Of a DNA stretch of 37,712 nucleotides, positions 9,858-21,127 are shown one piece after another. This DNA comes from a virus. Taxonomy: Duplodnaviria > Caudoviricetes. Location: positions 1-37,712 of the IMG/VR virus record IMGVR_UViG_3300037524_000258. One strand, 5' to 3'. Position 1 is the stretch's first letter, and each line of letters starts with the position of its first letter. A program made the position numbers and the translations under genes. The notes under the pieces are model-generated. The model saw only the letters and a list, made by a program, of their open reading frames with translations. It did no database searches and was not told the DNA's origin.

Positions 9858-10510
9858 ACAAGCCCACCCGTTGGAGCTATAGCTCCATCTCAACCTACGA
9901 ATCCTGCCCGGCTAAGTGGAAGTTCGGGTACATTGACAACATCCCCTACAAGCCCTCCGCAGCGATGCAACGCGGGACGCGCCTCCACTCTGACTGCGAG
10001 AAGTTCCTCAAAGAACCCCTCCATGTCTTGCCGTGGGAGTTGGCCAAGATGGGGCCCAGGCTACAGGACTTGAAGAACCTGGGGGCGAAGTCAGAGGAAA
10101 CCTGGTGCCTCGACCGCTACTGGCTACCCGACATGGTCAACCCTTGGGTCAAGGCCATCGTTGACGTGCACTGGTTTGAAGGGGACGGTACGGTGCTCCA
10201 TGTCCGGGACTTCAAGTCAGGGCGCGAGTACCCAGACCACAGGGACCAGCTGGAGTTGTACGCCTTGATCGGACTCAGCACCTTTCCCCAAGTCAAGCGT
10301 GCCGAGTATGGCGCCATCTATCTCGACACCGGCCACACCTCCAATGAGGGGGCTGTCATCCGGGGGGATATGATGGACCAAAAGATCAAGGTCTGGCACG
10401 ACCGCGCCGAGATCATGATGAAGGACGAGCAGTTGTTGCCCCGTCCTGGCGGAGCATGTAAGTGGTGCGACTACTCCCGCACCAAGGGGGGTCCTTGTGA
10501 AGCAGCTTGA
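9854..10510 (+). CDS. PD-(D/E)XK exonuclease, Cas4/RecB-like with four-Cys Fe-S motif
   Basis: SYSSISTYESCP, GTRLH, IVDV, VRDFKSG, QLELYA, CKWCDY...PC. Confidence 0.9.
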   Translation: MNKPTRWSYSSISTYESCPAKWKFGYIDNIPYKPSAAMQRGTRLHSDCEKFLKEPLHVLPWELAKMGPRLQDLKNLGAKSEETWCLDRYWLPDMVNPWVKAIVDVHWFEGDGTVLHVRDFKSGREYPDHRDQLELYALIGLSTFPQVKRAEYGAIYLDTGHTSNEGAVIRGDMMDQKIKVWHDRAEIMMKDEQLLPRPGGACKWCDYSRTKGGPCEAA

Positions 10511-10844
10511 GCGTGATATACAAGCGAATGTCACGAAAGAGTCAACCTCGCTCGGATTGATTCCGATTAGAATAAACGTGTCGGGCCGGAAGGGCTGGCC
10601 TGACTACGGGTACATGTACATGGGCCGGATAGCGTTCATCGAGTTCAAGCGACCCGGTGAACGCCCCGACCCGCTACAGGCTCACGTTCACAAGTTGTTG
10701 AACGCAGCCCAGATACCCGTATTTGTCGTGAACAACGAGGACTATGGAAACACCTTACTCAAGGAGTGGAAGCATGCTGTTGACGGTGAGCGAAAAGCAC
10801 TGGACGAACTTCGCAGTAAATCTGGTCAAAACAGGAGAAATTGA
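10497..10844 (+). CDS. VRR-NUC domain nuclease
   Basis: E..IQ, GWPDY, AFIEFKRPG, PLQ..VH motifs; usual position between PolA and SNF2 helicase. Confidence 0.88.
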   Translation: MKQLERDIQANVTKESTSLGLIPIRINVSGRKGWPDYGYMYMGRIAFIEFKRPGERPDPLQAHVHKLLNAAQIPVFVVNNEDYGNTLLKEWKHAVDGERKALDELRSKSGQNRRN

Positions 10845-11571
10845 TCCCCCTTACGAGGTCATCTACAAGGGTGGTCTGTCCTACGGGGACGAGTGGGCAG
10901 AGCGGTTCGCCCTCCACTACTTCCTGTTCTATGACCTGGGCGGAGCAGCGCGGTGCGCCAACGACACGACCCCATTCTGGTCCTACGTCACCAACGGGTA
11001 CCATCTGTTCAAACGCGGCAAGTCTCGTCGCCACTTCCGGGGGGAGAACGGGGCCAGAGCCATCCGACTCTTGTTAGAGTACCCCACCGCTGGCGATGTG
11101 TTCGCGGCTCTGTACCAGCCCACCTATGCTGGGATGTACCACCATATCCAGGACAACTTCGACGGGTGTCAAATTGGCGACTACTTCAGGTGGAAGCTCA
11201 TGGACATTTTTGATCGGTGTCTGGGGCGTCACGTCAGTCTCAGCATGCCGGAAGCTCTCAAGTTCCTCCCTGAGACCCCGCGCAAGGGCGCCAAGCAGTT
11301 CTTCCCCAACGATAGCTTGACGACCGCTCTCATGTCTGTAGTGCGAACCATTTCCCACCTGCCCGCGCCCGGCAATCCGAACCGACCTTGTGACCTGCCG
11401 GAAGCCGAGACCATCCTGTGCGCCATGTACGGGGCGCGCAAGGGAACGTACCGCTTTGGCATGGACCTCGACCATCGACGGGAGGAACTCAAAGACTTCC
11501 CTGACCTTGTTGAGTTCCTCCCCACCCACCAAGACTGGAGCCCTTATGACTGCAGTAACCTGGAATCCTAG
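10774..11571 (+). CDS. Amino acid:DNA transferase (AADT, aGPT-Pplase2 family) of thymidine hypermodification (265 aa)
   Basis: Start at ATG 10774 (AAGGAG RBS). Motifs F...LVKTGEIDPPY, RGKSRRHFRG, GDYFRWKLMD and EAETILC...GTY..G.D match my recollection of the family; supported by hmU-pathway neighbours. Confidence 0.8.
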   Translation: MLLTVSEKHWTNFAVNLVKTGEIDPPYEVIYKGGLSYGDEWAERFALHYFLFYDLGGAARCANDTTPFWSYVTNGYHLFKRGKSRRHFRGENGARAIRLLLEYPTAGDVFAALYQPTYAGMYHHIQDNFDGCQIGDYFRWKLMDIFDRCLGRHVSLSMPEALKFLPETPRKGAKQFFPNDSLTTALMSVVRTISHLPAPGNPNRPCDLPEAETILCAMYGARKGTYRFGMDLDHRREELKDFPDLVEFLPTHQDWSPYDCSNLES

Positions 11572-12940: not shown

Positions 12941-13387
12941 ATGAGTGACATCAATCTGATCTACCCAGGGCGCGACACCGCTACCCTGGTCAAAACGATG
13001 GACCCCCAGTGGCTCGTGGTCGGCCCCATCCGGGCTTGTATCCACCTGTCCAACGTGTGGCACCTGCTCGACCCCGCAGCCTTGGCCAAGACCAAGGACA
13101 CGGTGGGCGGGAAGGGGGCGATCCACTATAGCCTGAACGGGGCCAACGTGTTCGGTCCCAACGTCCTGGACCACTCCTGGACCAAGTGGGCCGCCACATG
13201 CGTGGAGAACTACTCTTGGCTGCTGTTCTTCGCCCAAGACATGTGCGCCGAGTACATCATCCGGTTCCCTCACGTCAGCAAGCACGGCGTCAGTCGTATG
13301 CTGGAGGCCCTGGAGAACATGCCCGAGTCCCTGCCCGAAGGCGAGTGGACCGAACCCTGGTTTGCCAAAGATGTGGAGGTACAATGA
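12941..13387 (+). CDS. Divergent pyrimidine-dimer DNA glycosylase (DenV/T4 endonuclease V)-like protein (148 aa)
   Basis: AGGAG RBS. The C-terminal pattern H.WTKW....ENYSWL......MCAEY..RF....KH.....L..L...P..LP....T matches the family as recalled; the N-terminal catalytic segment is degenerate. Confidence 0.6.
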   Translation: MSDINLIYPGRDTATLVKTMDPQWLVVGPIRACIHLSNVWHLLDPAALAKTKDTVGGKGAIHYSLNGANVFGPNVLDHSWTKWAATCVENYSWLLFFAQDMCAEYIIRFPHVSKHGVSRMLEALENMPESLPEGEWTEPWFAKDVEVQ

Positions 13388-13935
13388 AGATCATTAAGAT
13401 TCACGGCTGCTCTGGCGCCGGCAAGACCACCGCGGTGCGGGAGTTCATGTCCACCGGTGCGGTCCCCGTCCACGGTTCCAATCTCAAGATTGAGGCGTAC
13501 CATGCCCCGTTCGATACATATGTTCTGGGCTCTTATGAGAACACATGCGGCGGAATGGACACGGTCGGGTCGGCCCAAGAAGTTATGGCCCTACTCGACA
13601 GGTATGCGTCCCTGGGAAATGTCATATTTGAGGGGCTACTCCAAAGCACATACTACGGAGCGATGGGTACACATTCCCGCAAATGGGGCGATGATTACAT
13701 CTATGCGTTCCTCGACACACCCATTGAGCTCTGTTTGGAGCGCGTCGTTGCCAGACGAGCCGCCTCAGGGCGCAACAACAAGTTCAACCCTCAGCTGACG
13801 AGGGACAAGCACGCCACCATTGAAACCCTGAGAAGGAAACTCGAAAACGGCACCCAAATGGGGTTCCGTCACAAGGTGGCGATCCTCAAGCACGATCAGC
13901 CGATGGCGGCACAAATCATGGAGCTTCTGAAGTGA
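13384..13935 (+). CDS. P-loop nucleotide kinase associated with hmU modification clusters (183 aa)
   Basis: Start at ATG 13384 (GGAGG RBS, ATGA overlap); IIKIHGCSGAGKTT, LGSY...CGGMDT, VIFEGLL, FLDTPIELCLERV..RR. Confidence 0.85.
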   Translation: MKIIKIHGCSGAGKTTAVREFMSTGAVPVHGSNLKIEAYHAPFDTYVLGSYENTCGGMDTVGSAQEVMALLDRYASLGNVIFEGLLQSTYYGAMGTHSRKWGDDYIYAFLDTPIELCLERVVARRAASGRNNKFNPQLTRDKHATIETLRRKLENGTQMGFRHKVAILKHDQPMAAQIMELLK

Positions 13936-14393
13936 GCGAGTTCGGCGTCATTAAGACCAAGAAGGTCAGGATGACAGCCATGACCTTCGCCCTCATGATG
14001 AAAGAGCTGGATGCCGGGGCCTCAACTGTAGCCCAACTACAGGAGGCTACCGGCTTGGCCAAGGCCACCTTGTACGATTACCTGCGCGAGCTCAGGAAAG
14101 CTGGGCTGGTGTACGTGGCCGGGTTCGACAGGGCAGCGAACAACTGCCCCATGATCCCTCTGTACGAGTGGGGACCGGGGAAGAAGGACAAGAAGGTCAA
14201 GGCCATTTCCGTTGCGGAGAAGGCGCGCAACTACAGGAGAAACAAACGTGATCGTGAAGCACTTGGACGACTTACTCTATTGGGTCAACGAACGGGATCG
14301 GATGCGGATCAGGAAGCAGGAGGGGACCCGCCCCTACAGTTCCGACCCGATCATGGCCGAGACCAGATGGTGCAACGTGAGGCGCGAGGATGA
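13932..14393 (+). CDS. Winged-helix DNA-binding protein (153 aa)
   Basis: GTGA overlap; TVAQLQEATGLAKATLYDYLRELRKAGLVYV HTH pattern; the 3' end overlaps the next gene by 146 nt. Confidence 0.8.
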   Translation: MSEFGVIKTKKVRMTAMTFALMMKELDAGASTVAQLQEATGLAKATLYDYLRELRKAGLVYVAGFDRAANNCPMIPLYEWGPGKKDKKVKAISVAEKARNYRRNKRDREALGRLTLLGQRTGSDADQEAGGDPPLQFRPDHGRDQMVQREARG

Positions 14394-15075
14394 TCGAGTC
14401 ACTCAGTGGATCCACCAAAATTGGCTCAACCGAGGATGTCACCCGGATGACATGGCCTTCGCCATGTGCGTCGCTCGCATGGTTAACTGGCCAGATACAC
14501 TTGCTGAACTGGGTTTTCCTTACCAATGGAGTCCCACCCACTTCATCGACACTCTTGCCGCCCGTAAGGCGCGTGGTGACAAGGTATGGACGTCAGCATA
14601 CATGATCACCGGGGGCTACTCTGAGGGCGGCGAGAGCAAGGAAGTGATCATCGCTAGGGTGCTGTCGGGGGCACACGCCCGCCTTACCCACCCCAGTACT
14701 CGGATCAACCCGGACGACACACTTGAGGTCGCCTGGAAGAAGATCCAGACTCCTGGGATCGGCACGTTCCTGGCGGCCCAAGTTGTGGCGGACCTGAAGC
14801 ATACCCACCCACTACAACACGCCAAGGACTGGAACTACTGGTGTGCGGTCGGCCCCGGCTCCACGAAGGGGTTGAACTTTCTCCACGACCGCCCTCAGGG
14901 GCACGTCATCAACCAAGCCAATTTCGTCAAGGAGGTCAACGAGGTCAGAGAAGTACTGCGCCACTCGGGGTGGGCATTGGACGCCCAAAACGTCCAGAAC
15001 TGCCTCTGCGAGTTTCACAAGTTCATCAAGATCAAGTACCACGGAGGGCGGGCCAAGTCCCGCTATGTAGCATGA
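14248..15075 (+). CDS. 5-hydroxymethyluridine DNA kinase (5-HMUDK, aGPT-Pplase1 family; 275 aa)
   Basis: GTG 14248 with AGGAG RBS; WVNER, DPIM...RWCNVRREDDRVT, RMVNW, TSAYMI, GIGTFLAAQVVADL, GPGS.KGL, QNCLCEFHK. Confidence 0.88.
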   Translation: MIVKHLDDLLYWVNERDRMRIRKQEGTRPYSSDPIMAETRWCNVRREDDRVTQWIHQNWLNRGCHPDDMAFAMCVARMVNWPDTLAELGFPYQWSPTHFIDTLAARKARGDKVWTSAYMITGGYSEGGESKEVIIARVLSGAHARLTHPSTRINPDDTLEVAWKKIQTPGIGTFLAAQVVADLKHTHPLQHAKDWNYWCAVGPGSTKGLNFLHDRPQGHVINQANFVKEVNEVREVLRHSGWALDAQNVQNCLCEFHKFIKIKYHGGRAKSRYVA

Positions 15076-15794
15076 ACCTTAGCACGCTATCTGTTTGCGG
15101 CTTCAACATTGAGCTGCCCATTGGTTTGCCCGAAGTGCTCGACACCAAGGTGCGGGACTCCTACCAGACCTTCCTGAAGGAAAGCACCAACGACGTTCGC
15201 CGGCATCTTACCTGTGCCGCTACCCTCCTGCCCCCCATGATGAAGGGTCGGGACGGTCAACGGGTGCTCCATTGCTTCGGCGGCTTGGGGGCCACGGCTC
15301 AGATCCTCGATCAATGCGCAAAGGGTCTCAAGCACGAGTTCTGGGAGCGCGATCCTGTGTGTGTCGAATTTTTGTGCAGCCGCTATGACAACGTCCTGCC
15401 CGTAGACGACACGTTCAAGTTGTTCCCCGTCACTGACCTCAGTTCAGTCGACATCCTGCTCATGGACATGTCGGTCGGTACGATCAAGACCAAGGGCGTC
15501 AAGGAAATGTGGGGCAAGATCGCGGAGTGGATGCTGGATCATCCCGATCGGTTCGTGTGGTTCACCGACACGGCATGCCACAAGATCCACCTCAACTGGG
15601 ACCGCTACGGCAAGGACTTCGACACCCCACTACCCGAGCCGACCGCCGAAGCGTATTTGAACTGCTACAGCAGTTGGTTGGAGCGGATCCACGGCATGAC
15701 GATCACCGCCGCTATGCGGGAGGCGGGTGAGATCTACGCCATCGTCCAACGCCATACGGGACACAGCCGGTTCAAGGAAATCCCCTACGTGTAG
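15072..15794 (+). CDS. Atypical class I SAM-dependent methyltransferase-fold protein (240 aa)
   Basis: ATGA overlap with the 5-HMUDK stop; motif I-like VLHCFGGLGATA, acidic end of strand 2 (FWERD), strand 4 DILLMD; no DPPY/NPPY or PC motif. Confidence 0.65.
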   Translation: MNLSTLSVCGFNIELPIGLPEVLDTKVRDSYQTFLKESTNDVRRHLTCAATLLPPMMKGRDGQRVLHCFGGLGATAQILDQCAKGLKHEFWERDPVCVEFLCSRYDNVLPVDDTFKLFPVTDLSSVDILLMDMSVGTIKTKGVKEMWGKIAEWMLDHPDRFVWFTDTACHKIHLNWDRYGKDFDTPLPEPTAEAYLNCYSSWLERIHGMTITAAMREAGEIYAIVQRHTGHSRFKEIPYV

Positions 15795-16047: not shown

Positions 16048-16319
16048 TGAGACCCCTCAACAAGATCGCGGCAGAAATCGTGACGTTGTGGAAGGACAAG
16101 CCGCCTTCCCCCAAAGTCGTGTGGTTCTCGCTGCCCTACGTGCGAGCCATGCTCGACCTGACCTCCTGCCGCGACATGTACGGCATGGAGTACGGGGACA
16201 TGATCGTGGCCTACGCGCTCAACAACATGTCGCACTGGCGCGGCGACGACGCCAAGCGCATCAAGTCCGAACTCAAGCAACACCTGGAGGCGTTCAATGT
16301 TAACCATCATCGCGCATAA
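16047..16319 (+). CDS. Conserved phage hypothetical protein (90 aa)
   Basis: TGATG overlap; RPL..IA.EI...W, PY..AM, YG.....IV.Y.L.N...WRG..AKRIK.EL pattern recalled from phage hypotheticals. Confidence 0.8.
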   Translation: MRPLNKIAAEIVTLWKDKPPSPKVVWFSLPYVRAMLDLTSCRDMYGMEYGDMIVAYALNNMSHWRGDDAKRIKSELKQHLEAFNVNHHRA

Positions 16320-17265
16320 CGTCAATGACGCGTACCACGAGGGCCTGTGGAAGATGAAGTCCATGGGGGAGAGGGCTGACAGCCGCAACGGTGGGGTCAC
16401 CCGATTCCCCTACCCGGTGGCTACGACATACCTCAACCCGCAAGAGCGCATGCTGCTCGACGTCAAGCGGGACGCCAACCCGTTCTTCCACATCTTTGAG
16501 GCGATCTGGATGTTGGCGGGCCGCAATGACTCCGAGTTCTTGAAGCGGTTCTCCTCCAACATCGGCCAGTTCGCTGACGGTAACGGCACGTTCCATGGGG
16601 CCTACGGGTTCCGGTGGCGCGAGCACTTCGGGGAAGATCAGCTGGTGTGGATCATGGAACACCTGCGGAAGAACCCCAACACTCGCCGCGCGGTCCTGCA
16701 AATGTACGATCCGGTGGCGGACCAATGGAGCAAGGACGTAGACGCGCCGCTCGACATCCCCTGTAACACCGCGGCATACTTCGGCGTCCGCCAGGGCGCT
16801 CTCAACATGACGGTGACCAACCGCTCCAACGACATGATTTGGGGAGCCTACGGCGCCAATGCCGTACACTTCTCCATGCTCCTGGAGTTCGTGGCTAGGG
16901 GGCTGGGGCTCAAGGTCGGGTCGTACACTCAGTTCAGCAACGACCTCCACATCTATGAGCGTCACTACCCATTGATGGAGTTCCCCGAACCCGTCACAGA
17001 GTACGCCCACCACTGGCGCCACGTTCCGTTGACGGACCCCGAACACTGGGGCGGCGATCTCATTCAGTTTGAGGAGTGGTGCCGGTGGCCTCAAGGGGAG
17101 TACGAAAGCCCCTACATCAACCGGGTGCTGTCCCCCATGCTCCAGTCTTGGTACGCATACAAGGGGAAGAACAAGGAACTGGCACTGGGTCACATCCAGG
17201 CAGTTGACGACGACGCAGTGCGGTACGCCTGCGAGCAATGGCTCCATAGGAGGGCGTGGAAATGA
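16297..17265 (+). CDS. Thymidylate synthase-family enzyme, probably dUMP hydroxymethylase (322 aa)
   Basis: NPFF..EAIWMLAGRND, GAYGFRWR, DQL, RRAVLQMYDP, catalytic DIPCN, RSNDMIWGAYGAN (Asn indicates dUMP specificity), LHIY; C-terminal extension ending ACEQWLHRR; context of hmU-DNA enzymes. Confidence 0.9.
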   Translation: MLTIIAHNVNDAYHEGLWKMKSMGERADSRNGGVTRFPYPVATTYLNPQERMLLDVKRDANPFFHIFEAIWMLAGRNDSEFLKRFSSNIGQFADGNGTFHGAYGFRWREHFGEDQLVWIMEHLRKNPNTRRAVLQMYDPVADQWSKDVDAPLDIPCNTAAYFGVRQGALNMTVTNRSNDMIWGAYGANAVHFSMLLEFVARGLGLKVGSYTQFSNDLHIYERHYPLMEFPEPVTEYAHHWRHVPLTDPEHWGGDLIQFEEWCRWPQGEYESPYINRVLSPMLQSWYAYKGKNKELALGHIQAVDDDAVRYACEQWLHRRAWK

Positions 17266-17768
17266 GGCCAAGTTCAATTCGTCCGTTGTACCGCGCGGGG
17301 CGGATCAAACGCTACCACAGCACTGACTTAGAGGCGCAAACCGTCGCTCAGCACTCTTGGGGCGTCGCCATGATCGTGGCGATGATCTACCCCAGGGGTG
17401 AGGGGTACGCTGGGATGTCCTCCCGTTTGATCCTGGCGGCGCTGACCCACGACCTGGCTGAGATCGAAACCGGGGACATCCCCGCCACCGCTAAGTGGGA
17501 GAGCCGCGAACTCTGCGAGGCTCTCAACGTAATGGAGGGGAAGTTCAACCGCAGGCACGACCTGCCTCAGCCCGCATCGTACAAGGAGGATTCCATTCTC
17601 AAGTGGGCGGACACTTTTGAGTTGTGCCTCTACTCCCACCATCAAATCACCAAAGGCAACGAGTACGCTGTTGAGATCCTCAACAACGGACTGGAGCACC
17701 TTCGCAAACTCGGTTTCCCAACAACAGAAGCAAAGGAATTGTATGACCAGGTCTTCGGCAGACGATAG
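17262..17768 (+). CDS. HD-domain deoxynucleotide phosphohydrolase (YfbR-like; 168 aa)
   Basis: IKRYH, QTVAQHSWGV, ALTHDLAE..TGDIP, KWAD..E; ATGA overlap at 17262. Confidence 0.88.
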   Translation: MRPSSIRPLYRAGRIKRYHSTDLEAQTVAQHSWGVAMIVAMIYPRGEGYAGMSSRLILAALTHDLAEIETGDIPATAKWESRELCEALNVMEGKFNRRHDLPQPASYKEDSILKWADTFELCLYSHHQITKGNEYAVEILNNGLEHLRKLGFPTTEAKELYDQVFGRR

Positions 17769-18376: not shown

Positions 18377-19057
18377 ATGCTGAAACATCTTTCCATCATC
18401 GTCGTTATGGTCGGCGTCGCCTTCATGGCCGAAGCTCAGGCCGCTGGTCTGGGCCTTGGTCTCGACAAGGACACCAACATCAACACCAACGCCAATACCC
18501 AGGGACAGACCCAAGGGCAGAACCAGGGCCAAGCCCAGGGTCAGCTGCAGGGCCAGAACCAGGGACAGGCGCAGATCGCTACTGGCGGCAACGCAGCGGC
18601 AGGGGCGGCGGCAGGGGCCATTTCCGGCTCTGCCAGCAAGTCGGTGTCGGGGTCCACTTCCGGGGCCGTCAGCGGGTCGGTGTCCAGCACCGGTGCCGTG
18701 GACGCCTCCAGCAAGAACGCGGTGGGTCAGACGACCACGGTCACCATCAATGAGGCGGCTCCCCCGGCCAATGTGCGGGTGACGTCGGCGCCTGACGTTT
18801 ATGCTCCCCCGGCCGTCACCACGGCGGTCTGCGTGATCGGGGCGTCGGGTGGTGTGTCCGGTATGGGTTGGGGCTTCAGCCTGGGTAGCGGCGTCAAGGA
18901 CGAGGGTTGCGAAGCCCGCGCCCTGGCATCCCTGCTGCACTCGCACGGCGCAGCCGACGCGGCCAAGGAACTGCTCTGCGCCGCTGACAAGCGGGTCGCG
19001 GATGCGTTCGCCAAGGTCGGCAAGCCCTGCCGCCCGGAGCCGGCACCGGCCCAGTAA
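18377..19057 (+). CDS. Exported protein with signal peptide, QGQx repeats and a four-Cys C-terminal domain (226 aa)
   Basis: ATG 18377 with AGGAG RBS; MLKHLSIIVVMVGVAFMAEAQA signal-like N-terminus; (QGQx)6; Gly/Ser/Ala-rich middle. Confidence 0.8.
   Translation: MLKHLSIIVVMVGVAFMAEAQAAGLGLGLDKDTNINTNANTQGQTQGQNQGQAQGQLQGQNQGQAQIATGGNAAAGAAAGAISGSASKSVSGSTSGAVSGSVSSTGAVDASSKNAVGQTTTVTINEAAPPANVRVTSAPDVYAPPAVTTAVCVIGASGGVSGMGWGFSLGSGVKDEGCEARALASLLHSHGAADAAKELLCAADKRVADAFAKVGKPCRPEPAPAQ
18500..18574 (+). repeat. Six in-frame 12-bp repeats encoding QGQ[T/N/A/L]
   Basis: QGQT QGQN QGQA QGQL QGQN QGQA Q. Confidence 0.9.
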
Positions 19058-19575: not shown

Positions 19576-19754
19576 TTGCGATTCTCCTTGGTAGGTGCTA
19601 GGACATCTTCGATGGTGGCGCTGTCCTTTGCCACTTCACGCTGGACATCGGCGTCGGCGCGCGTGTTCACCGTGGCGACGCTATTGTGTCCGAAGGCTAC
19701 TGCGCAGCCTCCGACCAGCAGCACCACGAGGATCAACGCGACGAGGCCCCACAC
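19572..19754 (-). CDS. Small putative lipoprotein or membrane protein (60 aa)
   Basis: GTG 2 nt after the tail-fibre stop; LVALILVVLLVGGC hydrophobic segment with a lipobox-like Cys. Confidence 0.65.
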   Translation of the reverse strand: MWGLVALILVVLLVGGCAVAFGHNSVATVNTRADADVQREVAKDSATIEDVLAPTKENRK

Positions 19755-19756
19755 GG

Positions 19757-21127
19757 TCAGGCAGCGTAGAGCCGACCGTTGTTGTCGACCATCACCTGAC
19801 GGTTGCCGCCGCCCGCCATATTTGCGACGATAACGCCCCCGTCGCTCTTGACAGCCAGCCGCGAAACGTCGTTGGTCTGGAATAGCAGATCACCGCCGGA
19901 GCGGCGGTTGCCCAGGATCACGCTCTGGCCGCTGAACGTCAGTACGAACTGCTGGGCCTCACCAGCGTTCAGGTTGAACGTGTTGATGATCGGGGAGTTG
20001 ACTGCGCCGCTTTCGTTGTTGCTGTAGATCTGCAGGGCCTGATTCAGGTCAGCGCCAAACAGCGTCACGATGCCGTTGGCTGCGATTCGCATGCGTTCAA
20101 AGCCGACGCGCTGGTCAGCGTCCATCGGGCCAGAGCCGGTGCTGAAGGCCAGCGCGCCGCCGCTGTTCGGCACCATGCTGATGCCCGCACCGTAAGAGCC
20201 GACGCTGTTGTTCGCCACTAAGGCGATCTGCACGCCCGACTGGTTGGCGTCGCTGTTCGTGTAGACCTGGCCTGTGAAGACGGTGCGGTAGCTGTTGGCA
20301 CCGCCGGTGGCTGGCGTGTTCTTCGCAAAAAAGCTCACGTCATCCATGTTCGCCAGCACGTTGCTCCCGCCAGCGCCAGGATGGATCGACGTGATCACCG
20401 CCGCGCGTGCCGTGTCTTCGCCGCCGAAAGTCGCACGGCCGAGGTTCGTCACGCGGCCGACCTCGCCGCCACCAGGGCCACGCCACAACTGCACTGGGCC
20501 CGTGCCGTCCTGGCGGGTGATCGCCGCAGCGTTGACGCTGTTGTCGTAGATCAAGAGCTTGACCGTTTCCGCTGAACTGGTGCCGATCTGGACTGAGCCG
20601 CTGGGCTGAATCCGCATGCGCTCGACGCCGCTACTGCTCCACGTCAACCCCGTCGAGGATGCCGGGATTTGCATGACCCAGCTTTCGTTCCCGTCTTGGA
20701 ACAACTGCAGCCCAGCGGCCGTGCCGCTCGGCGTGTTGACCGCGAGCTTTTGACTGGGCGACGCAGCCCCCTCGCCGACCTTGAGGCTCGCAGCCGTGAT
20801 GGTCTTGCCCGTAGCCATGCCCAGGCCGGTGGTACCCCACTGGGCGATCTTCGCGCCCCCCACAGACACCGACAAGGTGCTAGCCGCTTCGCGGTAGAAG
20901 CCCAAATTGGGTTGGGAACCAAACGAGATAGATGGTTCCGCCACCGTTCCATCGGTGAACCGAACAGGGGCGGTGGGTCCCAGCAACCCGTCGCGGGTGA
21001 GAACGTTGTTGAGCTGAACAGCGATGTCGGACATCGTGGGATTGGCCCACGACGTTTCGATGATCGTACCGTCAACGACAGGGTTCCCTGCGGGCAGGGT
21101 ATAGACGCCAGAAGAGTCGCGGGGCAT
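19757..21127 (-). CDS. Tail fibre / receptor-binding protein (456 aa)
   Basis: Start at ATG 21127 (GGAG RBS); N-terminal anchor MPRDSSGVYTLPAGNPV..GT.I...WAN.T.SD...L.RDG; DGT..EPSISF; two ERMRI..[S/N]G.V repeats. Confidence 0.85.
   Translation of the reverse strand: MPRDSSGVYTLPAGNPVVDGTIIETSWANPTMSDIAVQLNNVLTRDGLLGPTAPVRFTDGTVAEPSISFGSQPNLGFYREAASTLSVSVGGAKIAQWGTTGLGMATGKTITAASLKVGEGAASPSQKLAVNTPSGTAAGLQLFQDGNESWVMQIPASSTGLTWSSSGVERMRIQPSGSVQIGTSSAETVKLLIYDNSVNAAAITRQDGTGPVQLWRGPGGGEVGRVTNLGRATFGGEDTARAAVITSIHPGAGGSNVLANMDDVSFFAKNTPATGGANSYRTVFTGQVYTNSDANQSGVQIALVANNSVGSYGAGISMVPNSGGALAFSTGSGPMDADQRVGFERMRIAANGIVTLFGADLNQALQIYSNNESGAVNSPIINTFNLNAGEAQQFVLTFSGQSVILGNRRSGGDLLFQTNDVSRLAVKSDGGVIVANMAGGGNRQVMVDNNGRLYAA

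Follow-up and report, generated by a model that had tools for sequence, protein, structure and literature searches.

A class I SAM-dependent transferase of an unnamed family as a candidate tailoring enzyme in phage thymidine hypermodification

In this study, we observed a gene for a 240-aa SAM-dependent transferase (15072..15794, plus strand) among thymidine-hypermodification genes in the window, the whole stretch of 37,712 bases that was analysed, which is a linear virus record about 92% complete. Its sequence and setting mark it as a real accessory tailoring gene of that pathway, belonging to a phage family without a name. Our preferred reading, which we hold at about even confidence, is that this class I enzyme N-methylates the amine that the amino acid/amine:DNA transferase (AADT) has attached to thymine in phage DNA.

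The gene lies in a rightward operon that encodes, in order, polymerase A, a PD-(D/E)XK nuclease, the AADT, an SNF2 helicase, a P-loop kinase, a wHTH protein, a PF18723 protein, the methyltransferase, a thymidylate-synthase homologue and an HD nucleotidase. The clade 2 transferase, or AADT (10744..11571, +), falls below the Pfam cut-off (19.9 against 26.2), matches its PHROG at E 2e-33 and 8z2m at E 3e-7, and has an intact catalytic E-T-x-x-C, residues whose roles have been described (PMC11472151). The P-loop 5-hmdU DNA kinase (5-HMUDK, PF18748; 13384..13935, +) scores 27.6 bits against a cut-off of 27. Downstream of the methyltransferase are the thymidylate-synthase homologue, a presumed dUMP hydroxymethylase (16297..17265, +), and an HD-domain YfbR-like 5'-deoxynucleotidase (17256..17768, +). 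Judged by its genes, the cluster is of the 5-HMUDK/AADT kind, with a dUMP hydroxymethylase homologue, a P-loop kinase and a clade 2 transferase that keeps the catalytic Cys and the metal-binding Glu/Thr. Two other genes of the window have counterparts elsewhere: a small gene at 12941-13387 with a PHROG 624 match resembles pyrimidine-dimer-glycosylase-like genes that recur near TET operons, and a secreted-looking Gln/Gly/Ala-rich protein at 18377-19057 (PHROG 20531) is like signal-peptide genes found 3' of the cluster in several relatives.

An earlier note on this DNA had stressed translational coupling of the gene to a 5-HMUDK. The overlap is there, in that the ATG at 15072 shares an ATGA with the TGA of the gene upstream, but that gene is not the kinase. 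It is a putative clade 1 aGPT-PPlase (14248..15075, +; start codon inferred from the ribosome site), in which PF18723 is the sole match and no P-loop kinase domain was found; we therefore rejected it as the 5-HMUDK, the P-loop kinase being the gene at 13384-13935. Pfam calls PF18723 the 'HMUDK helical domain', and its phage matches are annotated aGPT-Pplase1/clade 1; the name probably comes from SP10 gp186, in which the kinase and clade 1 are fused (PMC5889632). The enzymes shown by Lee 2022 to be 5-HMUDKs are P-loop kinases, and M6 gp55 is dispensable (PMC8989533). Nor does the emphasis on coupling hold: four-nucleotide overlaps occur at 4 of the 14 junctions of the window operon and are hence ordinary, a gap of more than 100 nt lies beside the methyltransferase in 5 of 11 non-self close loci, and the position of the gene varies. 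The AADT, which lies 3.5 kb upstream, is the more probable partner to track the methyltransferase. A longer frame from GTG-14841 was also considered as the start of the methyltransferase and was rejected because most close homologues align over residues 1-240.

The motifs that the earlier note had read in this frame are all present. Motif I, VLHCFGGLG (aa 65-73; 15264..15290, +), carries His67 in place of the family Glu, and the acidic residue expected of class I enzymes in strand 1 of this motif is thus absent. FWERD (motif II, aa 90-94; 15339..15353, +) closes strand 2 and supplies the presumed acidic ribose-binding position. Strand 4, DILLMD (aa 127-132; 15450..15467, +), ends in Asp132, and the distinctive segment is the family signature WFTDTACHKIHLNW (aa 163-176; 15558..15599, +), with Asp166 at the end of strand 5; both positions are acidic in 128 of 128 family members. 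The Asp166 region of this signature is likely the acceptor pocket. A regex scan of the 240-aa protein found no [DNS]PP[YFW], PC or ENV motif, bearing out the reported absence of DPPY/NPPY and PCQ, and the motif IV position reads D-M-S-V.

The product is confidently predicted to be a class I SAM-dependent transferase with seven strands, a glycine loop and an acid after strand 2. An AlphaFold2 model built from 74 sequences reached a pLDDT of 95.3 and a pTM of 0.91, and all 50 PDB matches listed in a structure search are class I SAM enzymes, as the earlier note had expected. Trm1 (Z 14.8, rmsd 3.5, 211 aligned), RlmK (Z 14.8, rmsd 2.6, 173 aligned), an RsmD-like protein (Z 13.8, rmsd 3.0, 170 aligned), RlmO, TYW2 (Z 13.7-13.8) and Trm5 lead the list within about 1 Z of each other, and the fold therefore leaves the chemistry unfixed. 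AzeJ and EgtD follow at Z 12.7; MnmC2 and DNA methylases are not among the 50 matches listed, which excludes nothing. The closest solved folds, Trm1, RlmK, RsmD and Trm5 (Z 13.4-14.8), align from residue 1 and share an N-terminal hairpin, yet they are only 9-13% identical to the window protein, which lacks their DPPF/DPY-type motif and has a family-specific D-[ST]-A..H-L-N..Y insertion after strand 5. By sequence, the protein has no family in Pfam, PHROG or NCBIfam, and a PDB sequence search with the close alignment gave no match at E <0.03.

The family is nevertheless sizeable. Close homologues number 79 matches at 43% identity or more, the window's own sequence included; a profile search widens this to 237 clusters at 50% identity, and in a profile comparison a distant subgroup joins the close clade with a probability of 99.3. 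Gly71, Gly73, Asp132, Asp166, Tyr179 and Tyr195 are constant across the family, and position 92 is Glu or Asp. The residue at position 67, as the earlier note had observed for the window, departs from the acidic norm: it is His in 74 of 74 close relatives, while among 128 wider members it is Glu in 109 and Asp in 7 (acidic in 116 of 128). The His clade forms a single branch of the tree (support 100/100) and has an invariant Cys169 after strand 5, a position at which just 13 of 138 wider members have Cys. Eight basic positions are conserved in the family and could contact DNA; the isoelectric point was uninformative as a test of DNA binding, known DNA-acting enzymes being equally acidic. Weak profile matches among the 128 members lean toward amine N-methyltransferases (KsgA 9, OlsG 5, PmtA 4), TRM5/TYW2 being matched by 8, and the weak profile matches from the PDB search span the SAM-binding half only.

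The earlier note had suggested that homologues might co-occur with hmU clusters, and they do. The forward set comprised loci retrieved with methyltransferase-only queries, grouped at 95% identity, with the window's own group dropped; its sampling patterns reach motif-matching subgroups, a minority of the 237 representatives, and leave the Glu-type subgroup A7 (10 proteins) outside. Within the DNA available around each locus, a T-hypermodification gene lies beside the methyltransferase in 59 of 59 groups: a kinase in 52, the clade 2 AADT in 51 and clade 1 in 20. Clade 2 is missing in 11 of 81 groups, all 11 short or ending near the gene. A pattern scan of GTDB gave 2 matches, neither in the family; of the 14 pattern matches in metagenomes, 2 likewise proved false.

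The gene occurs in three settings. Podoviruses like the window phage carry it with a PhiW-14-like transferase. M6-type clusters, in about nine lineages including Pam3, usually have it in the order PLP-MT-radical SAM, most with a glycine-type AADT. T4-like phages have TET/JBP-MT-AADT-kinase in 27 of 36 groups, with a ViI-type AADT (25% identical to that of Vi01); the 27 TET-type groups showed no PLP, radical SAM or clade 1 gene. This widespread T4-like operon (L240-L299; e.g. L270:798-4125), of TET/JBP, methyltransferase, ViI-type AADT and P-loop kinase 3, often follows ParB and amounts to a minimal post-replicative pathway without a PLP enzyme. Other arrangements were seen as well. One M6-type cluster (L023) holds two divergent family copies (9956-10723 and 19642-20220). 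At L025:9152-15124 and L022:4482-6884 the order is ParB-MT-radical SAM-AADT-kinase-second radical SAM, and a PLP gene was not detected; in each of the two AADTs the catalytic Cys is followed by Asp, and the radical-SAM gene of L022 has an intein-like insertion. The Mycobacterium phages Frederick, Bane1 and Prince (H131-H133) have, near 1.8-2.7 kb, a gene 36% identical to the ViI-type AADT of the TET operon, which suggests that they carry thymine hypermodification.

When four family members were searched against 50,697 cultured phage records, two matched Pam3 only and two matched nothing, against 107 records with an M6-type AADT; the methyltransferase gene is therefore accessory. The cultured member, Pam3_39 of cyanophage Pam3 (UQS95110.1, hypothetical protein), has the family's motifs and is matched at E 2e-9 from a Glu-type member. 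The Pam3 genome is like the window's cluster in having an AADT, a kinase and clade 1, and also has PLP and radical SAM genes. Pam3_39 differs from the window gene in its Glu-type motif I, its glycine-type AADT and its place about 2.4 kb before the PLP gene; the accessible text of PMC9382816 describes no function for it.

These findings bear on whether the protein is an ordinary orphan methylase (m6A, m4C or m5C), or an RNA or protein methylase, that travels in the replication module. Its F-G-G-x-G motif I is like that of DNA and RNA methylases, and RNA base methylases head the fold list. Against this, DPPY-type, PC and ENV motifs are missing, DNA-methylase families, m6A and m4C included, have no match among 128 members, and the link to one pathway is seen in podoviruses, M6-like and T4-like phages alike, with the gene at several places in the cluster. 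We consider an ordinary methylase very unlikely, in keeping with the earlier view that this is not an ordinary DNA methylase. Tetramer counts in the window (TGCA most under-represented against Markov expectation, at 0.56; TATA over-represented, at 1.62) gave no usable methylase-site signal.

The reverse set was drawn from alignment searches with AADT, clade 1 and kinase (the best 80 of 159, 295 and 91 matches, respectively) plus the 11 close loci, giving 200 loci in 104 groups, of which 60 had a complete cluster and 44 incomplete ones were set aside. Among complete clusters of this best-80 set, the methyltransferase occurs in 23 of 43 with both AADT and clade 1, a share biased upward because the seeds came from methyltransferase-bearing loci, in 0 of 13 with AADT alone, all 13 from one P26218-like clade, and in 0 of 4 with clade 1 alone. 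In the 60 complete podovirus clusters, the gene precedes the kinase 12 times, follows clade 1 8 times and follows the HD gene 3 times, and the slot is filled by two separate branches of the family. In clusters without it, the wider profile detected no remoter methyltransferase, and no replacement tailoring gene stood out by eye among the unannotated ORFs. Some clusters depart further from the common plan: L161, L175/L176, L182 and L183/L184 have, like SP10, the kinase, clade 1 and thymidylate-synthase homologue with no detected AADT. Invariant Cys residues are retained in clade 1, which may be a transferase in its own right. The AADTs of Rhodoferax phage P26218 (L027, genes 14-17) and L081-L115 have Arg at pocket position 243, with no clade 1 or tailoring gene, and this clade, present in a cultured phage, probably uses another donor, perhaps an anionic one.

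The donor pocket of the window AADT is also set apart. On the pocket map of Li 2026 (PMC13458397), its pocket reads Y139/A227/G230/Y238/D243 in SH-Ab 15599 numbering. It fails the glycine type (M6, YuA, PaMx11), having Ala and Tyr instead of K248 (after the catalytic Cys) and Trp146, and it fails the diamine type (PhiW-14, SH-Ab 15599), with A, G and Y against G227, H230 and D238; in SH-Ab 15599, D238Y abolished diamine transfer (PMC13458397). With the glycine-binding Lys and the diamine-binding Asp both missing, the pocket is of neither type and fits no known donor. The window AADT also has Ser at the amine-binding Glu position (E96 of YuA) kept by most relatives, a position at which a few other relatives carry Asn, Ala or Gly.

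Comparison of sister phages suggests that the methyltransferase clade and this donor pocket covary. The nearest relative of the window (L126) shares 79-85% identity with it across polymerase, nuclease, helicase, kinase and clade 1 and 61% in the thymidylate-synthase homologue, but 42% in the AADT and 20% in the methyltransferase, which belongs to the other branch. The pairs window/L126, L011/L069 and L002/L150 are all 61-87% identical in polymerase, helicase, kinase and clade 1, and differ in methyltransferase clade and pocket. Residue 238 of the AADT is aromatic in 9 of 14 His-clade genomes against 0 of 13 others, and His-clade genomes are mostly A227/Y238, other-clade genomes M227/H238. The clade 1 tree yields 5 independent pairs (4.1 agree, 0 oppose, p 0.125), a number that cannot reach 0.05, and the kinase and AADT trees yield only 2. 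The AADT evolves fast, at 44% identity even between same-clade genomes, and label changes are equal on the AADT and clade 1 trees (6 versus 6; 5 versus 5). Clade 1 was rejected as the main functional partner, since it accompanies only 20 of the 59 forward groups against 51 for the AADT and the position of the gene is variable.

The chemistry of the kinase and AADT is known from papers on homologues, and the proposed pathway would run as follows. The thymidylate-synthase homologue would make 5-hmdUMP, which would replace T during replication; the P-loop kinase would phosphorylate 5-hmdU in DNA; the AADT would swap the phosphate for an amine donor, through a pocket neither of the glycine nor of the diamine type; and the methyltransferase would move one to three methyl groups from SAM onto the nitrogen of the adduct, with Asp166 and Asp132 likely holding and deprotonating the amine. 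We infer that the acceptor is the adduct, the atom nitrogen and the group methyl. The M6-type product 5-NedU ends in a primary amine, and an amine appears to be the only group that the known products of the three AADT types all share (PMC8989533, PMC13458397). Class I catalytic pockets lie at the ends of strands 4 and 5 (PMC1282579). N-methylation of the adduct is favoured because the amine is shared by these products, because the acids Asp132 and Asp166 lie at the ends of strands 4 and 5, and because the weak profile matches include amine N-methyltransferases; the top and longest fold matches, moreover, are nucleic-acid base methyltransferases. PmtA and OlsG, the best weak profile matches to the family, would be its work-alikes in chemistry, as they methylate an alkyl amine repeatedly, but they act on lipids, the window protein matches neither model, and the likeness is limited to the SAM-binding half. 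MnmC2 offers an analogue on tRNA, where it is the SAM-dependent partner of the MnmC1 step. Phage PaMx11 has a homologue of MnmC1 from this pathway (PMC8989533).

Other acceptors in the same pathway would be the 5-hydroxymethyl group, the 5-PmdU phosphate or the adduct carboxylate, methylated on oxygen in DNA, or the product of clade 1. The kinase is as frequent a neighbour as the AADT (52 versus 51 of 59), and clade 1 accompanies the podovirus gene in 23 of 23 complete clusters of the best-80 reverse set. Against N-methylation, the clade 1 product stays a candidate acceptor, since the 13 AADT-only clusters are one clade and podoviruses never have the gene without clade 1. However, most TET-type clusters have no clade 1, the methyltransferase is in none of the 4 complete clusters that combine a kinase and clade 1 but no AADT, the carboxylate is removed in clusters with a PLP decarboxylase, and none of these targets predicts the covariation with the AADT pocket. 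We regard O-methylation, or a change to the clade 1 product, as distinctly improbable. The same grade applies to an enzyme acting before the AADT, one that makes the AADT's donor by methylating a free amine or amino acid or by cyclising SAM. Such donor synthesis explains the pocket covariation as well as N-methylation of the adduct does, the window pocket fits no known donor, and AzeJ (PMC11794875) and EgtD are in the fold list. Yet the AADTs beside Glu-type members retain the glycine pocket (K248/Y257/D262), nucleic-acid enzymes give the best and longest fold matches, the family has conserved basic residues, and sister phages keep the AADT without a methyltransferase gene.

The His clade may differ from the rest of the family in the group that it transfers. 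The earlier note had listed aminopropyl and aminocarboxypropyl transfer beside methylation of the adduct, which is the best fit, and had likened DILLMD to strand 4 of spermidine synthases. An Asp closing strand 4 is shared by many class I enzymes and is not specific to one family; Asp132 is there, but the Asp of the spermidine-synthase glycine loop, which excludes the SAM carboxylate (PMC1282579), is missing, positions 72 and 74 being acidic in 0 of 128 members. Only 1 of 128 members matches the Spermine_synth profile (E 0.004), and scanning of window ORFs revealed no SAM decarboxylase. Aminopropyl chemistry is thus unlikely. For aminocarboxypropyl transfer, the motif I acid is lost throughout the close relatives, as in nicotianamine synthase, where Kozbial and Mushegian linked the loss to aminocarboxypropyl transfer and proposed that it frees the aminoalkyl group (PMC1282579). 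TYW2, an aminocarboxypropyl transferase that shares the class I fold, lies within about 1 Z of the top match, 8 of 128 members match the TRM5/TYW2 profile, and the window AADT groups with the PhiW-14/15599 diamine transferases (support only 84/75). The motif argument is, however, a published hypothesis and not a rule, and the His clade is a single branch within a family that elsewhere retains Glu or Asp and fills the same slot in sister phages. Aminocarboxypropyl transfer by the His-clade enzyme, a small aminopropyl share included, therefore seems to us unlikely, and slightly less likely again is the fuller proposal that the clade switched to this chemistry and, with a new-donor AADT, builds an amino-acid-extended thymine on DNA. 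If that were true, the family would consist of interchangeable SAM enzymes that diversify phage DNA in step with the AADT pocket, an aminocarboxypropylated DNA base included; no paper on such a base was found in the literature searched.

The window cluster shares with M6/YuA (5-NedU), PaMx11 (5-AcNmdU), ViI (5-NeOmdU), PhiW-14 (putT) and SH-Ab 15599 (dapT) a hydroxymethylase homologue, a P-loop 5-HMUDK, a clade 2 AADT with E-T-x-x-C, a clade 1 paralogue and a tailoring slot; unlike in these phages, its AADT pocket matches no characterised donor. The tailoring set described for these pathways, namely a PLP decarboxylase, a radical-SAM isomerase, a flavin lyase and an acetyltransferase (PMC13458397), holds no class I SAM transferase, and none of its members was found among the scanned window ORFs. 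The type of system is thus known, and a class I SAM enzyme within it was not found in print: the literature searched, which did not extend to Iyer et al. 2013 or the supplements of Lee 2022 and Li 2026, gave no report of a class I methyltransferase within an AADT cluster, the accessible portions of PMC7824862 and PMC9382816 have nothing on one, and the Pfam-annotated methyltransferases near TET/JBP genes in PMC13229309 belong to families not matched by the window protein.

Altogether, N-methylation of the AADT adduct, if true, would bring the classes of tailoring enzyme in phage thymidine hypermodification to five and imply several DNA bases not yet described, such as N-methylated aminoethyl-, serine-type or other amine adducts. 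The family is wide, spanning three phage groups and 237 clusters, but surveys that rely on annotation would overlook it, as Pfam, PHROG and NCBIfam hold no model for it. A SAM enzyme that acts on a side-chain amine of DNA could serve as a labelling tool, and the exchange of methyltransferases between sister phages hints at an arms race against modification-dependent nucleases.
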